This document shows positions 1 to 39,560 of a stretch of DNA of 64,000 nucleotides, piece by piece. Location of the stretch: positions 2,767-66,766 of the forward strand of contig PLLJ01000045.1 in the NCBI GenBank assembly GCA_003140935.1. Direction: 5' to 3'. The notes beneath the pieces were generated by a model that made no database searches, had not been told where the DNA came from, and was given only the letters and a program-made list of their open reading frames with translations. The stretch comes from Candidatus Omnitrophota bacterium (GTDB lineage Bacteria > Omnitrophota > Omnitrophia > Omnitrophales > Aquincolibacteriaceae). Each line of letters opens with the position of its first letter. Within the stretch, counting starts at the first letter, position 1. Both the position numbers and the translations under genes were made by a program.

Positions 1-2033
1 AGCTGTTCGAACCCCCGGATCTTTTCCACGCTCCCAAGCTCCTCCTGGGATACCGGACGGCCTTTTGCTTTAAGAAAATGGTTGTAGAGGATCTTATAAA
101 GGAATGTGCTTTTCCCGGAACCGGAGACGCCCGTCAGGACCGTGAATTTTCCGATCGGGATCTCCACATGGATATTTTTCAGATTGTGCGCCTTCGCGTT
201 CCGGACCACGATCTTATGTTTTGCCGGGGCCGTCCTGCGGGCCTTCCGCTCGATCCCGCGCTTTCCGGCCAGGTATTCCCCGGTGACCGATCCCGGATGA
301 CGTTTGAGTTCTTCCACGCTTCCTTGGAAAATAAGTTCCCCGCCTTTGGCGCCTCCCTGGGGCCCGAGATCGATCACGCAATCCGCGGCGCCGATCATGG
401 TCCGGTCATGCTCCACGACCACGACCGTGTTCCCAAGATCGCGAAGCTTTTGCAGGAGCACGATCAGCATCTGATTATCGCGCTCATGAAGGCCGATGCT
501 GGGCTCATCTAGCACGTAAAGGGTATCCACCAGGGCCGACCCCAGAGAACTGGCCAGATGGATGCGCTCCACCTCGCCGCCCGAAAGCGTGCGCGACGTA
601 CGGTCCAGCGTGAGATACCCGAGCCCGACGTCCTTGAGGAACCGCGTGCGGCTGAGAAGCTCCGCCCAAACAGGTTCCACCTTTTCTTTTTCCTCCGGGG
701 TCAGGGGCAACGTCTCGAGAAATCGAAGCAGCTCTTCGATGCCCAAGGCCTGGACCTCGGCGATGTTCTTTCCGCCGATCCAAAAATCCAGCGCTTCTGT
801 TTTGAGGCGCGTCATCCGGCAAGTCCCGCAGGGTGCGTAACCGCGGTAGCGGTTGAGAAAGATCCGTACGTGCATCTTGTAGGTCCTTTTGTTCATGTAC
901 TCAAAGAACTCCCGGACGCTTACGAAGTCGTCGCCGGGATAGCCCTCGAGGATCCACTTGCGGTACCGGGGCTTGAGCTTCACCCATGGTATGCGGATCG
1001 GAATGCGCTTGCGCTGGCAGAAATCGAGGAACTGCCCTTGTTCCCAGCGGGTGCTGGCCTTGGTCCAGGGTTCGATGGCCCCCTCACGGATCGATTTGGA
1101 TCCGTCCGGAACGACAAGATCCGGATCAACCGTAATGACACGGCCGAATCCCTGGCAGGACGGACAGGCGCCGAGAGGACTGTTGAAAGAAAAAAGGTTC
1201 GGGGACGGTTCCAGGAATGACCGCCCGCACGAAAAGCACCTGGGTTTTTCCGAAAATTTCAGGATCTTGCCCGCAACCCACACCTGGGCTTCGCCGCGTC
1301 CCAGGCGGAAGGCCTGTTCCAGAGAATCGGTGAGCCGCTCTTGACCGGAGAGGTCGATCTTCAAAAGATCCACGCTTACCAAGAGCTCGCTTAAAACGGC
1401 CTTTTTTTCGATCAGAGCCGCCGCGTCGAGCCATTCACCGCCGTTCCGCCAGACAGCGTCGGCGGATCCGTCCAATGCATTATGGCGGACATGAAAAAAT
1501 CCGCTGAAACCCTGCCGCTCCAGTTCTTCCAGATTTTCACGCAAATATTTCGGGCTCTTTTTCCCAAGCGTCACTTGAAAAGCAACGCGTGCTTCCTGGC
1601 CCATGAACTCCGCGACGAGAGTCGTTGCCACTTTACGAGGATCGTATTTTTCAACGGGAACGTGACACGCCGGACACCGCAAACGCCCCGCGCGCGCAAA
1701 AAGGACCCGCAAGTGATCGTTGATCTCGGTCTGAGTCCCGACCGTCGAACGGGCGTTGGTGATGGTATTTTTCGCTTGGATGGCCAGGGCCGGAGGAACG
1801 CCTGAGGCGGACTCCAGGTCGGGTTTGGCCATCCGTTCGAGGAATTGACGCGCGTAAGCGGAAACAGATTCGATATAGCGGCGCTGGCCTTCGGCATAGA
1901 GCGTGTCGAAAGCCAGGGAAGATTTCCCGGAGCCGGAGACACCGGTGATGACGTAGAGTTTCCGGTGCGGGAGTTTAAGATCGAGGTTCTTTAAATTGTG
2001 GGTTCTGACCCCACGGAGCTGGATCGCATCCAA
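1..2033 (-). CDS. uvrA: Excinuclease ABC subunit A (UvrA), N-terminal ~677 aa; C-terminus lies beyond the window start
   Basis: Minus-strand translation from a TTG start at 2033 gives MDAIQLRGVRTHNLKNLDLKLPHRKLYVITGVSGSGKSS (Walker A). Further in frame: LFSFNSPLGACPSCQGFG zinc finger, LSGGE signature, DEPSIGLH Walker B, and a second GVSGSGKST Walker A near nt ~100. Frame is continuous to the window edge. Confidence 0.85.
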   Translation of the reverse strand, partial: MDAIQLRGVRTHNLKNLDLKLPHRKLYVITGVSGSGKSSLAFDTLYAEGQRRYIESVSAYARQFLERMAKPDLESASGVPPALAIQAKNTITNARSTVGTQTEINDHLRVLFARAGRLRCPACHVPVEKYDPRKVATTLVAEFMGQEARVAFQVTLGKKSPKYLRENLEELERQGFSGFFHVRHNALDGSADAVWRNGGEWLDAAALIEKKAVLSELLVSVDLLKIDLSGQERLTDSLEQAFRLGRGEAQVWVAGKILKFSEKPRCFSCGRSFLEPSPNLFSFNSPLGACPSCQGFGRVITVDPDLVVPDGSKSIREGAIEPWTKASTRWEQGQFLDFCQRKRIPIRIPWVKLKPRYRKWILEGYPGDDFVSVREFFEYMNKRTYKMHVRIFLNRYRGYAPCGTCRMTRLKTEALDFWIGGKNIAEVQALGIEELLRFLETLPLTPEEKEKVEPVWAELLSRTRFLKDVGLGYLTLDRTSRTLSGGEVERIHLASSLGSALVDTLYVLDEPSIGLHERDNQMLIVLLQKLRDLGNTVVVVEHDRTMIGAADCVIDLGPQGGAKGGELIFQGSVEELKRHPGSVTGEYLAGKRGIERKARRTAPAKHKIVVRNAKAHNLKNIHVEIPIGKFTVLTGVSGSGKSTFLYKILYNHFLKAKGRPVSQEELGSVEKIRGFEQ

Positions 2034-2040
2034 GGGCGGA

Positions 2041-2433
2041 TCACGACTTGATCTCGCGGCCCAAAGCTTCGCCGATGGCTTCCAGAAGCTTTTTTCCGCC
2101 AAAGACCTTTTGACTTTTGGGATCGATGGAGACCGACGTCGTTTCGCGATCCACGCGCTTGACCACGAACGTGATGACCCTTAGGTCGGAGTCATCGAAA
2201 CGGCTATAATTCATGTCCCGTACGCTGATCAAGCCTTTCTCTTTATCGGTCTCCTCAAGCTGCCAGTTCTCTATGGCAGTGAGAACATCCAGCGTTCGCA
2301 AATAGGTCAGATCGTACGGAAGCTTGTAGACGAACACTTCATCATTGGGCGGAAGGACTTCTCCGACGGTATTACATCCGGCAAGACCCAGCCCCAAGAT
2401 CAGAACGAGTACGAACTTTGAAAAATAATTCAT
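2041..2433 (-). CDS. Small lipoprotein (signal peptide + LAGC lipobox), function unknown
   Basis: ORF track 130 aa; N-terminus MNYFSKFVLVLILGLGLAGC. Confidence 0.6.
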   Translation of the reverse strand: MNYFSKFVLVLILGLGLAGCNTVGEVLPPNDEVFVYKLPYDLTYLRTLDVLTAIENWQLEETDKEKGLISVRDMNYSRFDDSDLRVITFVVKRVDRETTSVSIDPKSQKVFGGKKLLEAIGEALGREIKS

Positions 2434-2443
2434 GGGATGTCTC

Positions 2444-5400
2444 CTAAAATTTTCCGGTCATGCGCACAAACGGCCCATGACTTTTGAAACTATTCGTGTC
2501 ACGAAGGTCATCGCTGAAGTCAGTGAAATTATACCCCACCCCGAGCCGCACGTATTCATAAAATTCACGGTCAACTTCCACCAGGGCGCCTTGCTTCAAG
2601 GTATCCAAGGCATACGACTGCATCAGGATCCGGTACTCAAGCGCCAAGTCCCATTTGCGTGTCACGTGGAAATTGATGCGGTTCGCGGTCAGGAACGTGT
2701 TGACGTCCACCTTGTCGCCCACAGCGGAATTGACCACCGAATGTTTGAAGGCCAATTTCTCGGCCAAACCGAAATAGCGGTTCACGTCATAAGCCACATC
2801 AGTCGCAAGGATATGGGCCTCTTGGTCGAATTGGAAACCGTTGTATTGAGTGTCGTTGTATTGCTGGCTGGCGCCGACGTCCTTCAGAAAAGTGTACCGT
2901 GCCAATAAGTTCAGTTTATCAAGCTTGATGGGTCGGTAGGCAAACCCCGTACTGCCCTCCACAAAGTTCGCGGGAGTATTGGCCGGATCGTATTGACGGG
3001 TATCCCCGTAATTGAAGTAGGAAAGAAAACCCAGATCTTCGGTGATCTGGTAACTGAAAGAGTTGCGCGTGACGATCTGCGCCATTTTGGGGGCATCTTT
3101 ATCGCCGCGCAATTCCCAGTAGGTTCGCGCCCGGAACTTCTTCCCGCTCGCATAGGCGAGGTTGACGCCGGCGGTGTTGAAATCATTAGCGCGGGCAAGT
3201 GAATTCTGGGCCGCCTGATCGATCAGGCGCGTACTGGAATTCTCCAAGTGGCGGCGCTCGTACTTGGCTCCGTAATCCCAATGATCCCCTGCCTTTCCTT
3301 CATAACCCAGAATGTCCGCGAAGCCGTCGCTTCCCTGATAGGAGGAATATTCGCGTTCGGAATACATGCGCGATTTTTCGGTAAGCGCGAACGAATTTCC
3401 GATGGCCGTCGAAAGCGTCTTGTCCCCGATCCCGCGGTCTTCAGAACGGATGTTCGCATAACTCCGGGCGCCGTTCCCGTGCTGGCGCTCAAACCCGAAA
3501 TAGGTCGAATCCCCCAGAGGCCCGACCATTTCTTCCAGATAAGCAAAAAGATTATTCAAGATCTCATAACGCACGCCGCCGCCGAACTGCTGATCGCTCT
3601 TTCCGCCGATCGCGGTCTGGACCTTCACGTAAGGAAGCAGGCGATCGTTGATGTGATAGCCCAGTTTCCCCGTGACGCCGTTCTTAAAGGGGAACTGATT
3701 GGTGAGATCGGGTATCAGGTTCCCGACATCCTGCACCTCATCCAGATTGCGGCGTTGATATTCCAGTTCCGCGAGATATTTCGCGTCGTCATAAATGATC
3801 TGCGCGGTTTGGGTTTCGAGCGACTGGAACGGCTCCTGGGTATTCGTCACATCGAGCGGCATGAGCTGACTGAGGACCTCATTGCGATCGAAACGATAGC
3901 GAACGGACAAATTGTCCGTGAACTTGTACCGTGTGGCTAAGCCGTATTTTTCAAAACCTTCCTGATCCCGCATATAACCGTTCGAAAAACCCGGATTCAC
4001 GCCCTGGACATAACCGCTCGTTTCCAGTTTTTTTACAGGTTCTGAAGAGGCCTTGATGAGATAAGCGTCTTCCTGGGGCCGCGTATGCCTCCCGTTCAAA
4101 GGACCCAGACCCGCGTAGCTGATACCGCCGTCATAAGAGATCTCGGTCCCCGTCTGCTGGTTGATCGTTCTGGCATACTCCGCCGTGACCTTTGTGTTGC
4201 GTCCGAACTTCATCATGGCGTCCACGCCGGCCATGTCATAATCTCCACCGGGCCGGCTTTCCTGGACCCCGGTCGCGCCGATCCTTACGTGATCTCCCAT
4301 CCAGGTGTAGCCGCGTACGCCTTGGTTTGCGATCGAGGGGACCGCGTTGCTAGGGTCGAATTCATAATCGACGATCAAAACGACCGGACTCCCGTCCAGG
4401 ATGTCGGTCGAAGTCATCGTATCGGCCGCGGCCACGGAGGAAAGCGGCCGGGTAAGCATAATGCGGCCTTCGGGGTAATTGATCTCGTAATCCAAGCCCT
4501 CCTGCAGGTCATAACTGGAGACGGTCATATTCTGGATCTTGTCGCGGATCTCGACGCGGATCTTTTCGCTGCCTTCGATGATGTTACGGTTACGCGTGTA
4601 GAAAAGCGAACCGCCCGTGGCATAAAGCTCGTTATGGTCCGCCTGGTGCGAGGATTTTGCGCTAAAGACCTTGAACCCGCGTTTCGGATCGCCGTAGGCC
4701 GTGCTATCCACCGTATCAAAATTGATCTTCAGCCCAGAAAGCGTGCGGTTGTACGTGGCGAGCTCCGTATCCGTGAACTCGGTCTTGAAGCTTCCCCATT
4801 GGGCGTAGGAGCGGTCCATCTCGACCAGCACGTAAAGCTTTTGGGCCGTGTCCTGCGCCTGATAGTCGCGCGTCGAATTGTCCCCATAGATTGGATAATA
4901 GTCGTTCGGATTGAGGTTCGTGAAAAGCCCGTTGCGCTTATCGGCGGTGTCGTACTTGGCCTTCACAAGGAACTTGCCCTTGAGCTTGCCCTTCAAAAAG
5001 AAAGACGCACGCCCTTGTTCGCGGAACCCGTCGCGGTAAACCTCTGAGTCCGCGGCTTCCATCGCGCCGCTCGCCTCGTTCAGGCCCAACTGTTCTTCTC
5101 CCAAGGCCACCATGAAAAAGGTGCTGTCCTTCACCTTGATCTTCTTGTTGAAGCTTGTGGTCTCGCCCTCCGGCGTCGTGGCTGAAATAGCCACTTCATA
5201 TTCACCAGGCTCCACGAAGAATTCTTTCTGGAAGAGACCGCTTTCTCCGTCCACGGTCACGGGAGTATCGTTGATCATGATCTTATTTTTGGGTTGGGTC
5301 TTGCCCTGCACGCGGACCGTGGGCTTCGCCACAAGCGGAATGCTCCGCTGTCCGTCCTTCAAAAGATTGAAATCGCCGACCGGCGGGATCTCGGGATGGT

Positions 5401-30702: not shown

Positions 30703-31297
30703 TTTTTTTATCCGGTCAATCGGCTCATCTATCTTTTTTCTGACTTTTTTCCTCTCCTCAACCAGGACAATGCCATGATTGATTTAAAAATAAAAAAGGC
30801 GCTACCGCTGTTATGAAGTTATCGACAATAGTAACGCCTCTATTGATAAAAACTCCCCCGCCTGCGATTAAACCGAATGTCGCTTTTGAGGGTAAATGCG
30901 GCATCGCATCCAAGGAATGGCTATTTCTGACGCGGATCGGACAAGATTGTCAAAATCTTGCCGAAGCCGCCCTGGTTTTACATTATTCAAATCAATCGGA
31001 AAACTAGGGCTGCACTAATTTTCTTTTAAAAAAATTTATCGAAAATCAGTGCGTACCAAAGCATTGGGCTTTGATGCATTCAACCGGTCCCCGGGGTGCC
31101 AGCTTGTCCGCCTCTGGCGGAGTACTGTTCTATTCCGCTTCCGGTTGCCATATATCATATCCGCCAAATTTCACGGACGAATCCGTCCACGCTGTGTGGC
31201 GGATATGATATACGGTCTGTCACCGCCCCGCGTCTTTTGTCCTCGTGCCCCGAGCTACGAGTCCCGAGTCCCGTCTTCATTTGTCCCGATTCCCCGT

Positions 31298-31834
31298 TTA
31301 TATCTTTTTCGATTCCTGTTCCAGGCGCTTCATTTCTTCCAGGCTCGAGTTCTCTTCCCCGGCAATCTGTTGTCGGTTGTCCCCATCTTTATTCGAGTCC
31401 CGAGGAGCGAGTCCCGAGTCCCGCGGTGTTTCGTTCGAGTCCCGAGCTACGAGTCCCGAGTCCCGTGGTTTTTCGTCCGTCGTCTTGGCCTCAGGGGAAG
31501 AAAGTCCTTTTTTTGAGTCCTGTTCCAGGCGCTTCATTTCTTCCAGACTCGGGTTCTTTTCCCCGGTAGTCTGTGGTCGGTTGTCCCCATCTTTATTCGA
31601 GTCTCGAGCTACGAGTCCCGAGTCCCTGTCTTTATTCGAGTCCCGAGGAGCGAGTCCCGAGTCCCGCGGCGTTTCGTCAGCCGCAGCTTTATTCGCTCGC
31701 CGGGCCGCGATCGCCGTCCTCGCCGCCCGGATGCCAAAGATCGCGTGCGCCGGAGGCGCTCCGAGAAGAAACGTCCCCGTCACCAGTCCCGCCATCACGA
31801 TTTTAAAAGTTTTCGACATCTCCAACCTCCCCAT
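31298..31834 (-). CDS. Secreted tandem-repeat protein (RDSGLAPRDSNKDGDNR repeats), encoded by a ~230-bp x2 tandem DNA repeat built from the GAGTCCCGAGTCCC motif
   Basis: Signal peptide MSKTFKIVMAGLVTGTFLLGAPPAHA; two ~80-aa repeat units; the underlying DNA is a tandem duplication. Confidence 0.5.
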   Translation of the reverse strand: MGRLEMSKTFKIVMAGLVTGTFLLGAPPAHAIFGIRAARTAIAARRANKAAADETPRDSGLAPRDSNKDRDSGLVARDSNKDGDNRPQTTGEKNPSLEEMKRLEQDSKKGLSSPEAKTTDEKPRDSGLVARDSNETPRDSGLAPRDSNKDGDNRQQIAGEENSSLEEMKRLEQESKKI

Positions 31835-31929
31835 GCTGCGTTGTCCACTTAGGAATTTTATTCAACATGCCCTGAGATTAGAACGGCACTATTCTACGAA
31901 GGAACGGTGAAGAATAAAGTACCATTCCT

Positions 31930-32250
31930 CTATTGTTCTTCCCTCGACCCATTGATCTCATCGCCCCGCGAATATCGTGCGGTGTCTCCGGCCTTATAAT
32001 ATTTTGTGACGGAAATGACGAATTCTAAAAAGCCCCGCGCTTTGAGCTCATCCTTGATCTTCTCCAAAAGCTCCTGTCCCGGATCTTTCTGGCTCCATAT
32101 AAAAAAAGAGAGCGTATCTTTCCGGACGGTCAAATGGTCCACATTCTCATGGGCCCTTAAGATCTGTTCGAGAGGGTGCACATCCTCCAGACGCAGAAAA
32201 CGCGACGGGAATTTGATCTCAATGATCGTTAAAGTGTTTAAAAGTTTCAT
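31930..32250 (-). CDS. Small hypothetical protein (106 aa) tightly bracketed by 34-bp direct repeats
   Basis: MKLLNTLTIIEIKFPSRFLRLEDVHPL...; direct repeats at 31886..31919 and 32252..32286. Confidence 0.45.
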   Translation of the reverse strand: MKLLNTLTIIEIKFPSRFLRLEDVHPLEQILRAHENVDHLTVRKDTLSFFIWSQKDPGQELLEKIKDELKARGFLEFVISVTKYYKAGDTARYSRGDEINGSREEQ

Positions 32251-32358
32251 GCGTACTATTCTACGAAGGAACGGCGAAGAATAAAGCCTTTTGCGGATTA
32301 AAACAACAAACGGAGAAATCAAACAATGGAGTCATCCCTTCCCTCTTTTGGATGGCTG

Positions 32359-32970
32359 TCATCTTTTTTTCAGAGTAGCTTTGTCTTTATAGCTTGTACA
32401 TCGCACATAAAAATCAAATTGAATTAAAAAAAGAAGTATTGCGAACATAATTGTTAGAAATAAATTTTTCGTTAAACTTAATAATCCTATCGCTAATAAA
32501 GTCCCATTTAAAAAAGCCATTAAAAATACGAGGATCGGGAAATGATGCAAAAAACCTTCAAAATGTTTTGGCTCCTCATCGGTTATCGGCAACTTCAAGT
32601 ATTTTGTCAGATCGTCTTCCAGACTATTATCTGTGAAATACTTGCGAGTAAGGTTTGCGCTTTTTGCATAAAAAATCATCCGCATCCTAAGATTCATTAT
32701 GATCGCAAGGAAAATAACTCCTATAACAACTAAAAAAAGAACTATATAGACAAATGGCACTGGCAGATTATACAAGTCCCAAGTGATGGAGTTTATTTCT
32801 CTTGTTAATGCTAAGAATAAAGAAAGCGGAATCGCAATAACACCAAAATAATATTTAAATAATTGATAAAGAATTGTATATAAATGCTCGTAAAGCTCAT
32901 GCAAAAGCTTGTGCTCCTGCATCATAAATTCAAATTCTTGCTGAGCAGATAGTTGAGGATGTTTTTCCAT
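32359..32970 (-). CDS. 4-TM membrane protein, last gene of the AT-rich island cassette
   Basis: AT-rich codon usage; four hydrophobic helices; no recognisable family. Confidence 0.6.
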   Translation of the reverse strand: MEKHPQLSAQQEFEFMMQEHKLLHELYEHLYTILYQLFKYYFGVIAIPLSLFLALTREINSITWDLYNLPVPFVYIVLFLVVIGVIFLAIIMNLRMRMIFYAKSANLTRKYFTDNSLEDDLTKYLKLPITDEEPKHFEGFLHHFPILVFLMAFLNGTLLAIGLLSLTKNLFLTIMFAILLFLIQFDFYVRCTSYKDKATLKKR

Positions 32971-32990
32971 TGCTATCTTTAATGGGGTCG

Positions 32991-34070
32991 TTATTTCCTT
33001 CCCAATCTTTCTAATTCCCGGTTGTATGATTCAAAGCCATGTCTTATGACTATGTTTTGCTCTCGTACTTTTCTTCGAAAAAGTTTAACTTGCCAATCCA
33101 TCCAATTCTGATGAATAAAATAATCCGCAGAAGTCTGCGCGACTCTTGGGTTATAGTTATCGAACGTTTGATTTAAAGGCCGATAACGGCAATCAGCGGT
33201 TTGAACTCCCCATTTTTTACATTCTTTAATTTTTTGCAACATTTCATAAAAATCATGTTCGAAGTTAGATATCATGAACACGTACATCTCTTTTGCTCTG
33301 TATCCGGCTTCGATCAGCATCTCGATTTGTTTTTTTATCATTTGGCGCTGGGAATATCCATGATCCCAAGCGATCCTCGGGTTAAGAAAATGTGCCTGCT
33401 TCAACAATTTCGCCAATTCTGGCGTCAAAAGCCTCCCGTCAATTCCGCACTGACTTTCAGAATAGACCGCTCGCCCATTGCACTTCGCATTCTTCAATTC
33501 ATCCAAAATGTCTTTTATATATGGATTAGCTAAAAGATTATTATCGTAAAAAATTACCCTATTGCTACAAATCTCATCTTTGATACTTTTTTTGGGAATA
33601 AATTCGGGCTCGATTTTCCAAGTTCCGCAGAATTTACATTTTCGCACACATCCTCTTGAAGAATGAACGATCTGATAATCGACATCAACTAAACTGTAAT
33701 CTGGCGCAGATGCTTCCGCCTTTGGATCCACGCCAACAAAAACTTTATCGCATTCAGATTGTTTACAGTGGTCTGGCATGAGTGATGCATAAATGCCACC
33801 GACAGTTATATGGGCCCTGGGATAATTCTTTTTGTAGAATTTCACACTATCCCACACGTATTTGGACCAATAGGTAAATAGAGAGGTAATCTTAATTTCA
33901 TCCGGACAAAACTCTCCAACCAGCTTGTCCCCTCGCACAAGTCGGACTTTATCACCATTTGCTTTGTGGTAACTGGCTAGCTTGAGTAAGCCAACAGGCA
34001 AAAAATCTCGGTGATTTTTGCTTTTTGCTGGAATCGGAAAACCTGGTTCCACTAATAATATTTTAGACAT
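32991..34070 (-). CDS. Radical SAM enzyme with N-terminal B12-binding-like (Rossmann) domain
   Basis: KILLVEPGFP...PVGLLKLASYH...HITVGGIYASLMPD (B12-binding-like); SSRGCVRKCKFCGTW (CxxxCxxC). 8-nt overlap with the upstream HD gene. Confidence 0.75.
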   Translation of the reverse strand: MSKILLVEPGFPIPAKSKNHRDFLPVGLLKLASYHKANGDKVRLVRGDKLVGEFCPDEIKITSLFTYWSKYVWDSVKFYKKNYPRAHITVGGIYASLMPDHCKQSECDKVFVGVDPKAEASAPDYSLVDVDYQIVHSSRGCVRKCKFCGTWKIEPEFIPKKSIKDEICSNRVIFYDNNLLANPYIKDILDELKNAKCNGRAVYSESQCGIDGRLLTPELAKLLKQAHFLNPRIAWDHGYSQRQMIKKQIEMLIEAGYRAKEMYVFMISNFEHDFYEMLQKIKECKKWGVQTADCRYRPLNQTFDNYNPRVAQTSADYFIHQNWMDWQVKLFRRKVREQNIVIRHGFESYNRELERLGRK

Positions 34071-35583
34071 TTTTATTTAACAAGGTTTCTGGTAATTTCA
34101 ATTTAATGCCATTAAATTTTATATTATTCATAACATCTTTGTACTCGGGGAGTTTTCGAGCTAATTGCTCAGGATTAGCCCATCGGACTTTAACTTCAGC
34201 GTAATTATCTTCAAAACGGAAACCATCAAAAATGGCAAATTCCGCCGTTTCTTCGAAAGAACCGTTTCTTTTCCAATCATGTATGCTATCTAAAAAAATT
34301 AATAATACGGCGAAAGGGAAACGAGAAATATTAATCGGGAAGACTTCATGCTTTCTGAGTTCTTTCCAGATTCTGCTGTCATGTAGCGCAATAGAAGTAA
34401 CCGCTGGTATAACATGGGTAACAATTAACGGCCTATTGGGACGGCTGGTCACGACTTTTGATTCGCGTAAAACTCTCACAAGAAATTGAAAACATCCTGT
34501 TACTCCATGCGATCTATGTTTTATCAAATGTTCTCGTAGTATGTCCTTGATACTAGAATCCTCATCTTCTGACATTTCGGGCGTCCAATTATTAAGGATA
34601 CGTTCGGAACAACAATGTCGAATGAAGGATTGTAATTGTATCGCAGCCTGCAAATAATCACTTTTATCAGCGATCTTTTCCAAACCAATTAGTTCTATAT
34701 CCTCATTGTACCCGTACATTTCGCCAATTAAGTTGCCTGCTTTTTGCGAAGGGTAACCAATATCATGGAATATAGAAGTAATTAACCAGATGTATTCGAT
34801 GGAAAAATCTTTTTCCCGAGGAAAAACATTTTTATAATATTTTTGAAATTCCGCATAGTATTTATCGATTATTACGCATCCCATTAACATAACTTGAAAA
34901 GAATGCAAATAATGCTCACGCGTGCCCTTCAATAAGGGCTCATAATATTTCAGCCTCAAGTAAGGTTCCGAAGAATAATGAAATCTTTTATTATCAAAGA
35001 TTTTCTTTATCGTCAAATCAACTAATTCGTATTCCTCCTCTGAGATATTTTTTGTTTTTCTTAATCGTGAATATTTCGATACAAAATCCTTTAGGATTTG
35101 GCGGTATGAAATATTGTCCAAATCGCCAACGTACGATAAAAGCTTATTTGGAACATGTCCATGCTCAGAAGCCGCCTTCTTTTTTATTAGTTGTTTATAT
35201 TTTTTTCCACTAATTGCTTTGGCTTTAATATCAAGAAGTACGGAAAGCGAAGAATTGCTTAACTGAATTAGCCCAAATCCATTATTGAAACATTCAGAAA
35301 ATATCTGATCATATTCATATTCCGGCGGAATATAATAATAAAATTCAAAATTTTTAATTTGTTTTTTTGCTTTGATGATTTCTTTAGCGCCATTCGCTGG
35401 AAAAGCATTGCTTGTATTTATATCAATTGAAATTAATTTGGACTTATAGCGGTAAAGAAGATCTGGGCTCCACGCAATACCTCTTAAAATCCGATCTCCA
35501 GCCTTTTGGGAAAGTCTTCGCCAGTTGTATTTTTTCACTAAAATTTTATTGAGTTTATCTAGAAAAATTTCTTTTTTTGACAT
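34063..35583 (-). CDS. HD-domain phosphohydrolase (506 aa) with dNTP-triphosphohydrolase-like motifs and an uncharacterised ~220-aa N-terminal region
   Basis: TREHYLHSFQV (compare dGTPase RLTHSLEV), SIFHDIGYP (HD), later HRSHGV and LDSIHDW. Confidence 0.7.
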   Translation of the reverse strand: MSKKEIFLDKLNKILVKKYNWRRLSQKAGDRILRGIAWSPDLLYRYKSKLISIDINTSNAFPANGAKEIIKAKKQIKNFEFYYYIPPEYEYDQIFSECFNNGFGLIQLSNSSLSVLLDIKAKAISGKKYKQLIKKKAASEHGHVPNKLLSYVGDLDNISYRQILKDFVSKYSRLRKTKNISEEEYELVDLTIKKIFDNKRFHYSSEPYLRLKYYEPLLKGTREHYLHSFQVMLMGCVIIDKYYAEFQKYYKNVFPREKDFSIEYIWLITSIFHDIGYPSQKAGNLIGEMYGYNEDIELIGLEKIADKSDYLQAAIQLQSFIRHCCSERILNNWTPEMSEDEDSSIKDILREHLIKHRSHGVTGCFQFLVRVLRESKVVTSRPNRPLIVTHVIPAVTSIALHDSRIWKELRKHEVFPINISRFPFAVLLIFLDSIHDWKRNGSFEETAEFAIFDGFRFEDNYAEVKVRWANPEQLARKLPEYKDVMNNIKFNGIKLKLPETLLNKNV

Positions 35584-35593
35584 ATATTTGGAA

Positions 35594-36592
35594 TTATTTG
35601 TTATTTATCATTTGGTCAATGGTGTCTCGAAGTTTTTTTAAAGAAACCAAGATTCCTTCCTTTCTTTTTTTATCAGTTTCCTTCTTTAAATCAAACTCAG
35701 ATAGCTGTGAATTTAATTTATTAATATTTTTAATTAATGAACGGCTTGTTGTTTTGCTGGTCAAGGTGGGTATTTGTACTTTTTTAGTTAAGTCGTTTTT
35801 CAAGTCTTCGATTGTATACTCGATGTTTTCAATAAATCTTTTTGCTGAAGCAGCAAAAATTTCGATTTTGTCCAACTTCTTGCAAGTCATGATGGCATCG
35901 GGTATCCAAAAGAATGCGCGAGTTGTCCCAAGAAGACCTTTTTCTGCTTTCGCTATAAGCTTCCCTCTAATTTCTTCCCTCGAGTGATCCTTAAAAGTTT
36001 GGGGTATGTTTTTTTCTAACTGTTCAACAAAATTTTGTTCTATCTGCACAAGGTAACTGTCATCCAGCTTATTCTCCATAACTTTTTCTTGCGTTTCTTT
36101 ATTAAACCTCAAAAGCCGCAATCTATCTTCGACCTTTTTTCCGTCCATTTTGGTTATCTTTGCTATTTCGCCAATTAGGTCTTGATCGGTTATCGATTTG
36201 TTTTTTCTTTTTATCAAATCAACATAGAATTTTAGCGCTTGGGCTTGCGCCATCGGCTCCCATTGTTCTCTCAGCATGTGAATTTGAAACATTCGTTTTA
36301 AGCCTTCCCCTTGGGCTTTGGCTTTTTTAATGGCCAACACATGGATGGGCACGCCTTCTCGTTTAACTTTTTGAGCAGCTTTAAGCCGTCTTTCGCCATC
36401 GAGCAAAATATATTTTTTGCCTTTTTTGCTATCGTTTTTAAAAACGATCAAAGGCACCATGACTCCAAATTGCCGAATGGATTCCTCTAGTGCTATGAAA
36501 TCCTTATCCTCATAATCCTGGCCTCTGGGATTATCTGGATTGAAAGCTATATCATTAGGAGAAACATACCTGATCTGCTCGTTTTTATTCAT
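35594..36592 (-). CDS. ParB/Sulfiredoxin-like N-terminal domain protein with Lys-rich helical C-terminal half
   Basis: VSPNDIAFNPDNPR...LEESIRQFGVMVPLIV...YILLDGERRLKAAQ (ParB box motifs); GGAGG RBS 6 nt upstream. Confidence 0.75.
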   Translation of the reverse strand: MNKNEQIRYVSPNDIAFNPDNPRGQDYEDKDFIALEESIRQFGVMVPLIVFKNDSKKGKKYILLDGERRLKAAQKVKREGVPIHVLAIKKAKAQGEGLKRMFQIHMLREQWEPMAQAQALKFYVDLIKRKNKSITDQDLIGEIAKITKMDGKKVEDRLRLLRFNKETQEKVMENKLDDSYLVQIEQNFVEQLEKNIPQTFKDHSREEIRGKLIAKAEKGLLGTTRAFFWIPDAIMTCKKLDKIEIFAASAKRFIENIEYTIEDLKNDLTKKVQIPTLTSKTTSRSLIKNINKLNSQLSEFDLKKETDKKRKEGILVSLKKLRDTIDQMINNK

Positions 36593-36761
36593 TCTATACC
36601 TCCATTTATTCCATAAATCATTTAAGATTTTTTATCTTTGTAGACGGAATCGATCCTACTTTCTTTCGTAAGTCAACGGAACACCGTCTGGGGAAAGACG
36701 TTAACTCCCCAATCTTATAGACGCACTCTTCGTTACAGGCAAGGGGAAAAAAGAAACCGCC

Positions 36762-37211
36762 TCAAAGATATAAGGCGCAGACGAAGGCGAGGGCGCCGGC
36801 GACGAGGTTGGCCAGGGTGCCGATGAGCCAGCGCTGGAGGTTATAGGCGGCGATCCGGTTCCTCGCGCTCCAATAGTACATCGGGTCGAGGCCTTCGATA
36901 TGCTCCGGCGTTTTGACGATCAACGCCCACGCCACCCATTTGGAAACGAGCTTGAACGCGAGCCACCCGACGATGATCCTGGCGGAATGCGTGGTGAACG
37001 CGATATAGAACAGGACCACTTCGAGAAGCCCGAGGACTTTGCCGAAGACCGGGCTTACCTGGCCGATGAGGAACGCCTTGGCCAGCTTCTCGTCCACGCA
37101 GTGGTAGTCTTCGCGCTTTCTCAGGAGCCTGAAGAGCCCGCGGATCGCGAACGACAGGAGCACGGCGACGGACAAACCCACCACAAAATGTTTCAGCGCC
37201 AGAAGCTGCAT
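36762..37211 (-). CDS. Membrane protein, unknown (GC-rich host-like composition resumes)
   Basis: Three or four TM helices. Confidence 0.5.
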   Translation of the reverse strand: MQLLALKHFVVGLSVAVLLSFAIRGLFRLLRKREDYHCVDEKLAKAFLIGQVSPVFGKVLGLLEVVLFYIAFTTHSARIIVGWLAFKLVSKWVAWALIVKTPEHIEGLDPMYYWSARNRIAAYNLQRWLIGTLANLVAGALAFVCALYL

Positions 37212-38207: not shown

Positions 38208-39560
38208 TCACCTTTGCATACGAACAGCGTGCCCTTTTTCCAGGAGTTCCTGGTTCACGTAAGTCCCGCCGGCCCAAATGTCGACCAGGTACCTGTCGTA
38301 TTTGTCGGACTTGACGGTCTTGATGAGGATTTGCGCGCTGATTTTTCCATCCGCCATTTTCAACATCTTCTCCATGGCTTCTTTCGCTTCTTTTCCTTCC
38401 TTGCTCACGAGCTCGGGGGCGTCGAGACCGCGCAGGCGCAGGGTCTGCACGCTGCGCACGCCGAAGCCCAGATCGACCACCGCTTCGATCGTGTCGCCGT
38501 CGAGAATGCGGAACACCCAGGCGCGGTAAGTAAAAAGGTCGGCGGAGGTCCGTTTCGAGAGTTTGATCAGATCCGAGGGCGCGGAACCCGCTCCCGGGAA
38601 CGCGGGCATCACTTCGATGATCGCCCCTTCCTTGAAACGGAGGTCCCGGGACGTCCGGTAATAATTGGAGAACCCGAGGTCGATCACCGCCTTGCCGGTC
38701 TCGGGGCCCGCGGCGGCTTTGACGATCTTATAAGTCCCGGGCTTCCCCGGCTTGGCCGTGAGCGGGGTTTCTTTCACCGGCGCCGGCGCCTCATTTTTCG
38801 CGGCCTTGCGCTTTTTCACTTCTTCACGTACCTGGTCGCGGGTCCAGTTTTCTTTTTCAGCCATGGCCGCGACCTCGTCTTGCTCCTTGATATCATTCAG
38901 CGAAAGAAGCTCCTCATAATGGCTCCAGCTCAATTTTCCCGCGGGCGGGGAAATCGGGTAATCGCGGGCGAACTGAAGCATGGCGTACAGCTGGGTCTCG
39001 CTGATGGGCAAGTCTCCGGACAATCTTAAGATCACCTGCTTGCCGTAATCCGCGCGCTCCTTGTGCTGGAGCACGTGCTCGTCGATCAGTTTGCCGATCT
39101 CCCACGCCTCGCGGACTTTTTCCTGTTGGGCGGCCTGCTCCACACGGGCCTCGCTGGCCGCGTGGGCCTTGCGAATGGCGGCGACGAGCTGCTCGTAAGT
39201 TCCAACCTGGGTCGCGAGCACTGTAGACGATGGTCCCAAATCGTCACCGGGCCGTGCCTGTTCACGGCGCTCTTCAGCCGTCCCTGTGGGACTGGGAACA
39301 GGCGAGGTCTGGACCTGCGGCGCGGGCACTGTAGACGATTGTCCCAGATCGTCACTGTGCCGTGCCTGTTCACTGGGAACAGGTGCGGGGACCGGCGGGT
39401 TCATCGAAGGGACCTGCCCTGAGCTTGCCGAAGGGGCCTGCGAAGACGAGGACTTCAAGTCCCCGCGAGCGTGCTGAGGAACCGGGTCCTCAGCCTGCAA
39501 GGACGGGGATATCCAGAGGAGCGTGAGGAAAATACCGAGGGTGATCGTCGTCGTCTTCAT
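38208..39560 (-). CDS. Secreted multidomain protein: signal peptide, low-complexity duplicated segment, YhcG/DUF1016-N-like helical domain, and C-terminal staphylococcal-nuclease (SNase)-like domain
   Basis: MKTTTITLGIFLTLLWISPSLQA signal. Two copies of ARxxDDLGxSSTVxAxQV. SNase-like GDTIEAVVDLGFGV...LRGLDAPE...DKYDRYLVDIWAGG. Confidence 0.65.
   Translation of the reverse strand: MKTTTITLGIFLTLLWISPSLQAEDPVPQHARGDLKSSSSQAPSASSGQVPSMNPPVPAPVPSEQARHSDDLGQSSTVPAPQVQTSPVPSPTGTAEERREQARPGDDLGPSSTVLATQVGTYEQLVAAIRKAHAASEARVEQAAQQEKVREAWEIGKLIDEHVLQHKERADYGKQVILRLSGDLPISETQLYAMLQFARDYPISPPAGKLSWSHYEELLSLNDIKEQDEVAAMAEKENWTRDQVREEVKKRKAAKNEAPAPVKETPLTAKPGKPGTYKIVKAAAGPETGKAVIDLGFSNYYRTSRDLRFKEGAIIEVMPAFPGAGSAPSDLIKLSKRTSADLFTYRAWVFRILDGDTIEAVVDLGFGVRSVQTLRLRGLDAPELVSKEGKEAKEAMEKMLKMADGKISAQILIKTVKSDKYDRYLVDIWAGGTYVNQELLEKGHAVRMQR

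Follow-up and report, generated by a model that had tools for sequence, protein, structure and literature searches.

What is the function of a predicted HD-domain protein whose gene is packed between a ParB-like gene and a radical SAM (rSAM) gene? This question is raised by a locus within a 64,000-nucleotide (nt) stretch of contig PLLJ01000045.1 from a Candidatus Omnitrophota bacterium (positions 2,767 to 66,766 of the forward strand), hereafter the window. The initial annotation had likened the product of the central gene to dGTPase/SAMHD1-type enzymes, antiphage effectors that deplete deoxynucleoside triphosphates (dNTPs). We are confident that this HD-like protein represents instead a new HD family, not a dGTPase, which is central to a conserved ParB-HD-rSAM cassette. 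Much more tentatively, and with less than even confidence, we propose that the cassette is a DNA-directed, restriction-like conflict system.

Three tightly packed genes

The three genes of the cassette lie on the same strand:

35594..36592, minus strand: ParB/Spo0J-type partner, 332 amino acids (aa), identified by its PF02195 match
34063..35583 (stop codon included), minus strand: HD-like protein gene, 506 aa, supported by the open reading frame (ORF), its homologs, and a confident structure model
32991..34070, minus strand: rSAM partner, 359 aa, identified by its CxxxCxxC motif and its match to phrog_9298

The initial annotation had placed the HD-like gene correctly, with the same coordinates. 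The motifs that it cited are present (TREHYLHSFQV at residues 221–231 and SIFHDIGYP at residues 270–278), as is the sequence GIAWSPDLLYRYKSKLISIDIN, quoted from an N-terminal region rich in lysine, tyrosine, and aromatic residues, at residues 35–56, and its two neighbors, a ParB-like gene upstream and an rSAM gene downstream, were also borne out. However, the genes are not translationally fused, as had been stated, but separate: the ParB stop lies 10 nt ahead of the HD ATG, and the HD stop and the rSAM start overlap by 8 nt (ATGTCTAA). This spacing indicates a tight packing of the genes and possibly translational coupling.

A large family of divergent HD-like proteins

A word-indexed homolog search returned 10 close relatives of the HD-like protein (64–76% identity) and one distant relative. 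The same type of search with a 123-sequence alignment recovered the same 10 close relatives and none further. By an exhaustive HMMER profile search, we identified 1,275 representatives of 50%-identity clusters at E ≤ 1e-3, 126 of them at E ≤ 1e-30. With these homologs, the gene is real and not a chance ORF. Members of the family are labeled "hypothetical protein" in public sources, and this family of over a thousand clusters is without a model in Pfam, NCBIfam, PADLOC, or PHROGs. In direct scans, the HD-like protein matched no Pfam, PADLOC, or PHROG model. Its best NCBIfam match, over the H..HD stretch, was to the HD subfamily TIGR03401 (E = 0.036). Among PDB sequences, neither phmmer nor a profile hmmsearch gave a match, except for a chance one to PurE.

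We analyzed residue conservation in an alignment of 123 sequences sharing 18–31% identity with the query; a second set of 82 sequences gave the same result. H227, G235, W266, H273, D274, H359, H401, and L428 are invariant, and conservation reaches at least 90% for H224, D432, and R439. H227, H273-D274, and D432 follow the H ... HD ... D order of the metal ligands in the HD superfamily. The additional invariant residues H359 and H401 point to a predicted H-HD-H-H-D ligand set. Binuclear phosphodiesterases and nucleases of the HD superfamily typically have such a set.

Profile comparisons gave faint signals of the same kind. Six of the 82 diverse members matched PF01966 (HD), with a best E-value of 0.0062, and this was the sole Pfam family to recur in a scan at E ≤ 1. 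Every other family was matched once, including one Cas3_HD, which belongs to the same clan. As a chance family would not recur among members, we consider the PF01966 signal genuine. For the family consensus, the only signals were to HD models (PF01966, E = 0.64; TIGR03401, E about 0.03). No HD-clan match reaches the gathering score, be it with the query, the consensus, or the 82 members. A structure model computed from the 123-sequence alignment (pLDDT 92.7, pTM 0.93) replaced a poor earlier one based on 11 sequences (pLDDT 64.5), and its HD core is all-alpha. Taken together, these data support the prediction that the core is a very divergent HD-superfamily domain. Judged from these comparisons, the protein would belong to no named HD subfamily and define one that is as yet unmodelled. 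The initial annotation had considered that profile searches might place the core in an HD subfamily other than the dGTPases; they set it apart from the dGTPases, as described below, yet placed it in no named subfamily.

The HD-like protein is probably distinct from dGTPases

We assign both groups to the HD superfamily, and the motif resemblance seen in the initial annotation is correct. RxxHSxxV and HDIGxP are in register and similarly spaced in the two, with H227 corresponding to H69 and H273-D274 to H117-D118 of Escherichia coli Dgt. The genomic context, which has the flavor of a defence island, could also agree with a dNTP triphosphohydrolase starving phages of dNTPs. However, the motif RxxHSxxV...HDIGxP is the generic HD signature, and the following comparisons argue against this assignment. 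The dGTPase models of NCBIfam and PADLOC did not match the HD-like protein. PF13286 (HD_assoc), carried together with PF01966 by all genuine Dgt homologs, was matched neither by the query nor by the 82 family members. Many dGTPase and SAMHD1 chains have been solved, but none was recovered when the family profile was run on the complete set of PDB sequences, and none was among the top 50 Foldseek matches. With hhalign, the probability was 1.3% against E. coli Dgt and 2.3% against a Dgt-family alignment of low diversity (the homolog search listed only sequences at 84–99% identity). In both cases, the 61–62 columns of RxxHSxxV...HDIGxP were aligned and nothing beyond. As a positive control, two branches of the HD-like family aligned with 100% probability (E = 1.5e-47).

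The residues themselves also differ. The histidine of the HDIGNPPFGH sequence of Dgt is absent from the query (HDIGYPSQKA) and from the family consensus (FHDxxYPxQ), and the invariant H359 and H401 are without counterpart in the dGTPase ligand set. Furthermore, the HD-like gene is paired with other genes in a multigene cassette, unlike the known defence dGTPases, which to our knowledge are single-gene systems. We conclude that the HD-like protein is, on all these grounds, predicted not to be a dNTPase of the dGTPase/SAMHD1 family, and we regard the depletion of dNTPs as a very improbable function.

Four structural regions

Based on the model and on conservation, the 506-aa protein is divided into four regions:

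35224..35583, minus strand: N-terminal alpha/beta domain, residues 1–120, with a putative PD-(D/E)xK (restriction-endonuclease-like) fold according to Foldseek, catalytic residues not conserved
34933..35223, minus strand: helical linker, residues 121–217, part of the conserved core, with invariant P145 and conserved Y160 and F167
34249..34932, minus strand: all-alpha HD core, residues 218–445, with the invariant ligands, the PF01966 and TIGR03401 signals, and the Dgt motif register
34066..34248, minus strand: small C-terminal beta-beta-alpha-beta domain, residues 446–506, from the model

The "unassigned 220-aa N-terminal domain" of the initial annotation is thus not a single domain but two regions. 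We assigned residues 121–217 to the family core because core-only homologs (~365 aa) start near residue 135. At the other end, the C-terminal domain aligns across both branches of the family up to residue 497.

In the model, the secondary structure of the N-domain (residues 1–120) is a-a-b-b-a-b-a-b-b, where a is a helix and b a strand. Foldseek matched it with probabilities of 0.99–1.0 to NucS/EndoMS (2vld), Hjc (2wj0), AF2093 (2ph7), and phage resolvases/VRR-NUC proteins, with E-values of only 0.003–0.3 and target-normalised TM-scores of 0.28–0.45. PD-(D/E)xK nucleases were the sole high-probability structural matches of this region. The N-domain probably has the fold that the initial annotation had suggested looking for, at weak E-values. 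Its catalytic residues are not conserved: P40 alone is invariant, D41 and D54 both differ among homologs, and the third position is N, G, or E, with no conserved lysine. This lack of conservation makes it likelier that the domain serves in binding or as a scaffold than in catalysis.

The cassette is found in distant lineages

Locus contexts were collected by exact-protein look-ups and by a scan of GTDB species genomes. ParB, HD, and rSAM genes are collinear, in this order, and abutting or overlapping in 14 loci, with a spacing of −17 to +12 nt between ParB and HD and of −1 to −115 nt between HD and rSAM. The loci with named records belong to Omnitrophota (Ca. Velamenicoccus archaeovorus), Zixibacteria, Aminicenantes, and Planctomycetota; three others come from uncultured bacteria. 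Between the loci of named lineage, the HD proteins share only 25–32% identity. Among 18 distinct loci, a ParB gene adjoins the HD gene in 17 and a B12-domain-like rSAM gene is present in 15. An all-against-all comparison of the flanking ORFs of these 18 loci revealed no other recurrent gene, and neither helicase nor cas genes recur beside the cassette. In all 14 cassette loci, the cassette is AT-richer than its flanks. The cassette is compositionally foreign and probably horizontally mobile. Plasmids, phage records, and 2.9 million viral contigs essentially lack it: for the HD gene, there was no plasmid match, one partial match in a phage contig, and one marginal match in IMG/VR.

ParB and HD form the more constant pair, as core-only HD genes follow a ParB gene without rSAM in loci L013/L014 and L115. 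These rSAM-less pairs lie beside DNA methyltransferases, and in L115 also beside a BamHI-type restriction-modification (R-M) pair. Other neighbors are a Type I R-M system and pP_pnuc_1 (L007), and an SNF2 gene and a PD-Lambda-5_A-like ParB (L010). In PADLOC-DB v2.0.0, the ParB and HD proteins had no match at E ≤ 1 and the rSAM protein chance-level matches only. We found no published account of the cassette in full-text literature searches for ParB, HD, and radical SAM in combination.

Directly downstream of the cassette of L007, between hsdM and hsdS of the Type I R-M system, a 503-aa ORF encodes an RNase HII domain (L007:9389-10900). Immediately downstream of the cassette of an Omnitrophota-like contig, a gene for an RtcB RNA ligase containing an intein (PF14890) lies beside an archease gene (L005:7976-10969).

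The ParB-like partner

The product of the upstream gene scores 47.7 bits with PF02195 (ParB_N; cut-off 26.3). It matches Spo0J (6sdk, E = 6e-8) over residues 8–177, reaching through the helix-turn-helix (HTH) region. Its N-domain is also matched by phrog_498, a phage ParB-methyltransferase family. It carries the nucleotide-binding motifs NPR and DGERR, and D65-G66-E67-R68-R69..A72 is conserved in 14 orthologs. The "ENLQR" box of ParB is replaced by F(Q/H)IHM (FQIHM in the protein of the window).

NCBI names this protein "ParB/RepB/Spo0J family partition protein", and there are sub-threshold matches to the Noc and ParB models of NCBIfam. These data would fit a partition-related or housekeeping ParB operon, with the HD-like protein acting in chromosome or plasmid maintenance. 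However, the Noc and ParB scores are far below the cut-offs, and no ParA-type ATPase gene adjoins the cassette in any locus compared. Neither the cassette nor its vicinity contains a conserved parS-like palindrome. In the window, three perfect palindromes are found in the ParB and HD coding regions, at 35839–35859 (TTTTTGCTG-ctt-CAGCAAAAA), 36431–36448 (ATCGTTTTTAAAAACGAT), and 35317–35333 (ATATTCCG-c-CGGAATAT). They are probably not parS sites, because none is conserved even at 73–76% protein identity. With, in addition, the lack of a plasmid match, the patchy distribution, and the foreign composition, a role in partition is the least credible of the functions considered here, and we hold it to be extremely improbable.

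The rSAM partner and its phage relatives

The rSAM protein consists of a Rossmann-like N-domain, which weakly resembles B12-binding domains, followed by a radical SAM core with the CxxxCxxC motif (C141/C145/C148). It matches phrog_9298 (E = 2e-38) and scores 27.6 bits with PF04055, just below the cut-off. PDB sequence and profile searches revealed no significant solved relative. An OxsB-like identity was also considered, and no similarity was found in the PDB. The rSAM is the best conserved of the three cassette genes; in L024, for example, the E-value is 8e-114 for rSAM against 7e-43 for HD.

Phages carry standalone homologs of this rSAM (phrog_9298) in early DNA-metabolism regions, in one case two genes away from a Dam methylase. 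In Marinitoga camini virus 1, the homolog (KP836355.1 37383-38465, L015; 35% identity, 90% coverage) is annotated as hypothetical. Such a placement would be expected if the enzyme modified a generic substrate, either nucleic acid or nucleotide. Marinitoga camini virus 1 is a temperate virus of Thermotogota, and its rSAM homolog adjoins HerA- and NurA-like genes.

The overlap of the HD gene with a B12-domain-like rSAM gene, a tight coupling conserved across phyla, might also reflect a nucleotide-processing pair: the rSAM would transform a (deoxy)nucleotide and the HD enzyme would remove phosphates from substrate or product, yielding an antiviral nucleoside or nucleotide analogue, with the CTP-binding ParB fold as sensor or regulator. 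A precedent is the biosynthesis of oxetanocin A, in which OxsA, a small single-domain HD protein, and the B12-dependent rSAM OxsB act as a complex on dAMP, dADP, and dATP; viperins are a looser one. As in OxsA/OxsB, the gene of an HD enzyme is linked to that of an rSAM, and the two proteins presumably associate; the N-domain of the rSAM is here predicted to be of the B12-binding type. The standalone phage rSAM could serve nucleotide hypermodification, and the GERR nucleotide-binding motif is retained in the ParB-like protein. However, neither the HD nor the rSAM profile is similar to the solved OxsA and OxsB chains, the rSAM of the trio has no pVip match, and the cassette differs in its ParB partner and its 506-aa multidomain HD protein. 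In addition, ParB-HD pairs lacking rSAM exist (L013, L115), the nuclease-fold N-domain and the HTH of ParB would be left without a role, and the sister branch described below is paired with a peptide-modifying type of rSAM. We therefore consider a nucleotide-processing pair unlikely.

A sister branch paired with a different rSAM

Outside the window, the HD-like family includes a branch of longer proteins (580–830 aa), homologous to residues 77–497 of the query according to the hhalign control described above. Their loci (L034–L113) are without ParB. Where the upstream sequence was long enough to judge (52 metagenomic loci), a SPASM-type rSAM gene lies directly upstream on the same strand in 51. 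This rSAM resembles AhbD/NirJ and peptide maturases (E about 1e-57), below every curated equivalog cut-off. A viperin identity was rejected, since the pVip matches cover the rSAM core only, with E about 1e-21 against ~1e-57 for the SPASM families.

Most rSAM-HD intergenic gaps (55 of 62) harbor a small ORF, and 51 of the encoded peptides have a CxxC near the C-terminus. The peptide consensus is 62 aa long, with a conserved leader and a Cys/His-rich C-terminus ...ITCSKCHHCR (ending ...EQLTDPDYRLKQLEKLNKGKLSITCSKCHHCR). In L034, for instance, the rSAM gene (589–1653) and the HD-like gene (1904–3967) are separated by a gap of 251 nt containing the small ORF. In the gaps of L072, L076, and L106, the product of an ORF of ~95 aa resembles PqqD, a recognition element of ribosomally synthesized and post-translationally modified peptides (RiPPs), with a sub-threshold match to NF033530 (E = 2.4e-5). 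The short peptide itself is matched by none of the curated precursor models. As no protease or exporter recurs in these loci, the peptide probably stays intracellular. The next commonest neighbors are what we take, from inspection of their sequences by eye, to be an HsdM-like methylase, a QueC/PP-loop-like protein, and a tyrosine recombinase.

The long-form cluster looks like a predicted intracellular RiPP-like or peptide-cofactor system that has not been described. With PQQ, mycofactocin, and ranthipeptide clusters it shares a SPASM rSAM, a short leader-bearing, Cys-rich precursor, and an occasional PqqD-like ORF. It differs from them by the lack of a recurring protease or exporter and by its third conserved gene, which is HD-like. 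None of these RiPP-type features is found in the window itself. Directly upstream of one long-form rSAM-HD cluster, a gene encodes a protein combining SLFN/AlbA_2 and HATPase_c_4 domains (L032:270-1646), which matches the pAgo and Aga_SIR2-PNTD models of PADLOC with E about 1e-18.

The tight linkage of one HD-like family to two unrelated classes of rSAM, B12-like in the cassette and SPASM in the long-form loci, might indicate that the HD enzyme itself depends on an rSAM. It would require a cross-linked peptide made by the rSAM as subunit or cofactor in the long-form branch, and a modification by the B12-like rSAM in the ParB-containing trio, and its role could be metabolic or regulatory and not one in defence. 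The homology of the two branches over most of their length, the conserved peptide usual in long-form loci, its probable retention in the cell, and the occasional PqqD-like ORF agree with this explanation. On the other hand, neither a homolog of the peptide nor a conserved small ORF or hidden precursor was found in ParB-HD-rSAM loci. Across the family, neither a cysteine nor any other evident site for modification is conserved. Copies of the trio-type rSAM that have no HD partner exist in phages, ParB-HD pairs occur without rSAM, and AT-rich islands adjoining R-M genes are atypical of housekeeping metabolism. An rSAM-dependent HD enzyme of this kind seems to us a rather improbable explanation.

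A possible restriction-like conflict system

Several observations suggest that the cassette might act on DNA. The HTH of ParB, the nuclease-fold domain, and the Cas3-like HD motif pattern point to nucleic acid. Methyltransferases adjoin the rSAM-less ParB-HD pairs, and phages carry orphan rSAM copies where orphan modification genes usually sit. Moreover, ParB-fold proteins are documented as helpers of DNA-modifying enzymes (PMC13229309, PMC10853773): ParB176 is needed by its dioxygenase on double-stranded DNA only (PMC13229309), and DndB is a member of the ParB superfamily (PMC10853773).

In the restriction-like system that we propose, the ParB-like protein would bind or load onto DNA and recruit or license the HD enzyme. 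The latter would be a metal-dependent phosphohydrolase cutting phosphodiester bonds as a nuclease or phosphodiesterase, with its degenerate PD-(D/E)xK-fold domain serving as a nucleic-acid-binding module. The rSAM would supply a modification of nucleic acid or nucleotides by which self is marked or the effector is gated in some other way. We infer both the catalytic activities and this division of labor.

Two groups of known systems are comparable. Cas3 HD nucleases show a five-motif H, HD, H, H, D pattern. Cas3/Cas3'' (PF18019) and the HD-like family have this pattern in common, both occur in contexts of nucleic-acid conflict, and one of the 82 HD-like members weakly matches PF18019 (E = 0.011, sub-threshold). 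Unlike Cas3, the HD-like protein has as a rule no fused or adjacent superfamily 2 helicase, and its cassette loci are without Cascade or CRISPR neighbors. In ParB-assisted DNA modification (5mYOX with its ParB activator, DndB/Dnd, DpdB/Dpd, and ParB-methyltransferase fusions), a gene of the ParB/Srx fold likewise lies beside a candidate DNA-acting enzyme. However, the partners encoded here are of other types, with an HD protein and an rSAM in place of a dioxygenase, PP-loop ATPase, or transglycosylase, and the most constant pairing is ParB with HD, not ParB with the modifier. The Dnd, Dpd, and Ssp models of PADLOC matched none of the cassette proteins.

Several points weigh against a restriction-like system. 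We know of no radical SAM enzyme acting as the "M" component of such a system. The N-domain lacks conserved catalytic D...(D/E)xK residues, and no conserved parS-like site accompanies the ParB-like protein. A PADLOC scan of 142 flanking ORFs, in which many R-M methylase models and mad2 were matched, is qualitative and without a background control. Above all, the logic of R-M would leave the long-form branch unexplained, with its SPASM rSAM, its CxxC peptide, and its lack of ParB; this branch hints at a possible deeper dependency between HD and rSAM. It is because of this unexplained, peptide-linked branch that we put forward the DNA-directed, restriction-like reading as a possibility only.

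In a broader reading, the HD-like family would define conflict systems of a new, intracellular class whose binuclear HD effector is under the obligate control of radical SAM chemistry, exerted in two interchangeable forms. In the first, as in the window, control would be exerted by a ParB-type DNA clamp and a B12-domain-like rSAM. In the second, a SPASM rSAM would mature a non-exported Cys/His-rich peptide, which would be the ligand, subunit, or cofactor of the effector. We consider this broader proposal doubtful, and less probable than a restriction-like function of the cassette.

Surroundings of the cassette in the window

The cassette lies within a low-GC island with sharp edges. The following features accompany it in the window:

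32300..36700, unstranded: low-GC island, GC 0.27–0.43 against about 0.55–0.6 in the flanks
32359..32970, minus strand: predicted membrane protein, 203 aa, without family match
36758..36777, minus strand: terminator-like hairpin, from a consensus scan alone, ending the gene that precedes ParB

This hairpin may mark the 5' limit of the transcription unit of the cassette. The gene for the 203-aa protein, predicted to be multi-pass, is inside the island and of similarly low GC. Its product had no match in Pfam, PADLOC, or NCBIfam scans. Among the cassette copies compared, it is present only in the genome of the window; it is a genome-specific passenger outside the conserved cassette. No signature of integration was detected, as there is no tRNA gene within the window and no direct repeats bracket the island.

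Just beyond the left edge of the island, a 32-nt direct repeat (31888–31919 and 32255–32286, 97% identical) brackets a 130-aa ORF (31930..32322); the island itself is not flanked by this pair. Farther left, families of tandem and direct repeats occupy positions 31229–31677, with 56-nt units containing GAGTCCCGAGTCCCG and a 118-nt pair of 90% identity. They lie inside a GC-rich ORF (31298..31834, minus strand) encoding a repetitive protein (…PRDSGLVARDSNKDGDNR…) whose N-terminal part includes a hydrophobic segment. On the other side of the cassette, a gene at 38208..39560 (minus strand) encodes a 450-aa protein combining DUF1016_N, the N-terminal region of YhcG-type nucleases, with a staphylococcal-nuclease (SNase) domain. 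The start of this protein resembles a signal peptide, and its sequence includes a long low-complexity stretch rich in Pro and Ser.

Significance

The components of the cassette each come from a known superfamily, and the cassette and the HD-like family match none of Pfam, NCBIfam, PADLOC, and PHROGs. Members of this family are almost never alone: they are accompanied by ParB and rSAM here and by a SPASM rSAM in the sister branch. Should the cassette serve in defence or DNA modification, prokaryotic immunity would gain a radical SAM chemistry beyond that of viperin, further ParB-fold proteins would be found to serve DNA-acting enzymes, and the HD-like protein would be a new type of HD effector. 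Were the broader class of rSAM-controlled conflict systems real, it would provide the first nuclease-type immune module gated by peptide maturation or by an rSAM. Read most conservatively, the ParB-HD-rSAM cassette still offers a clearly delimited set of three genes, from uncultured anaerobic lineages, that lends itself to experiment, with H273/D274, GERR, and CxxxCxxC as targets for mutation.

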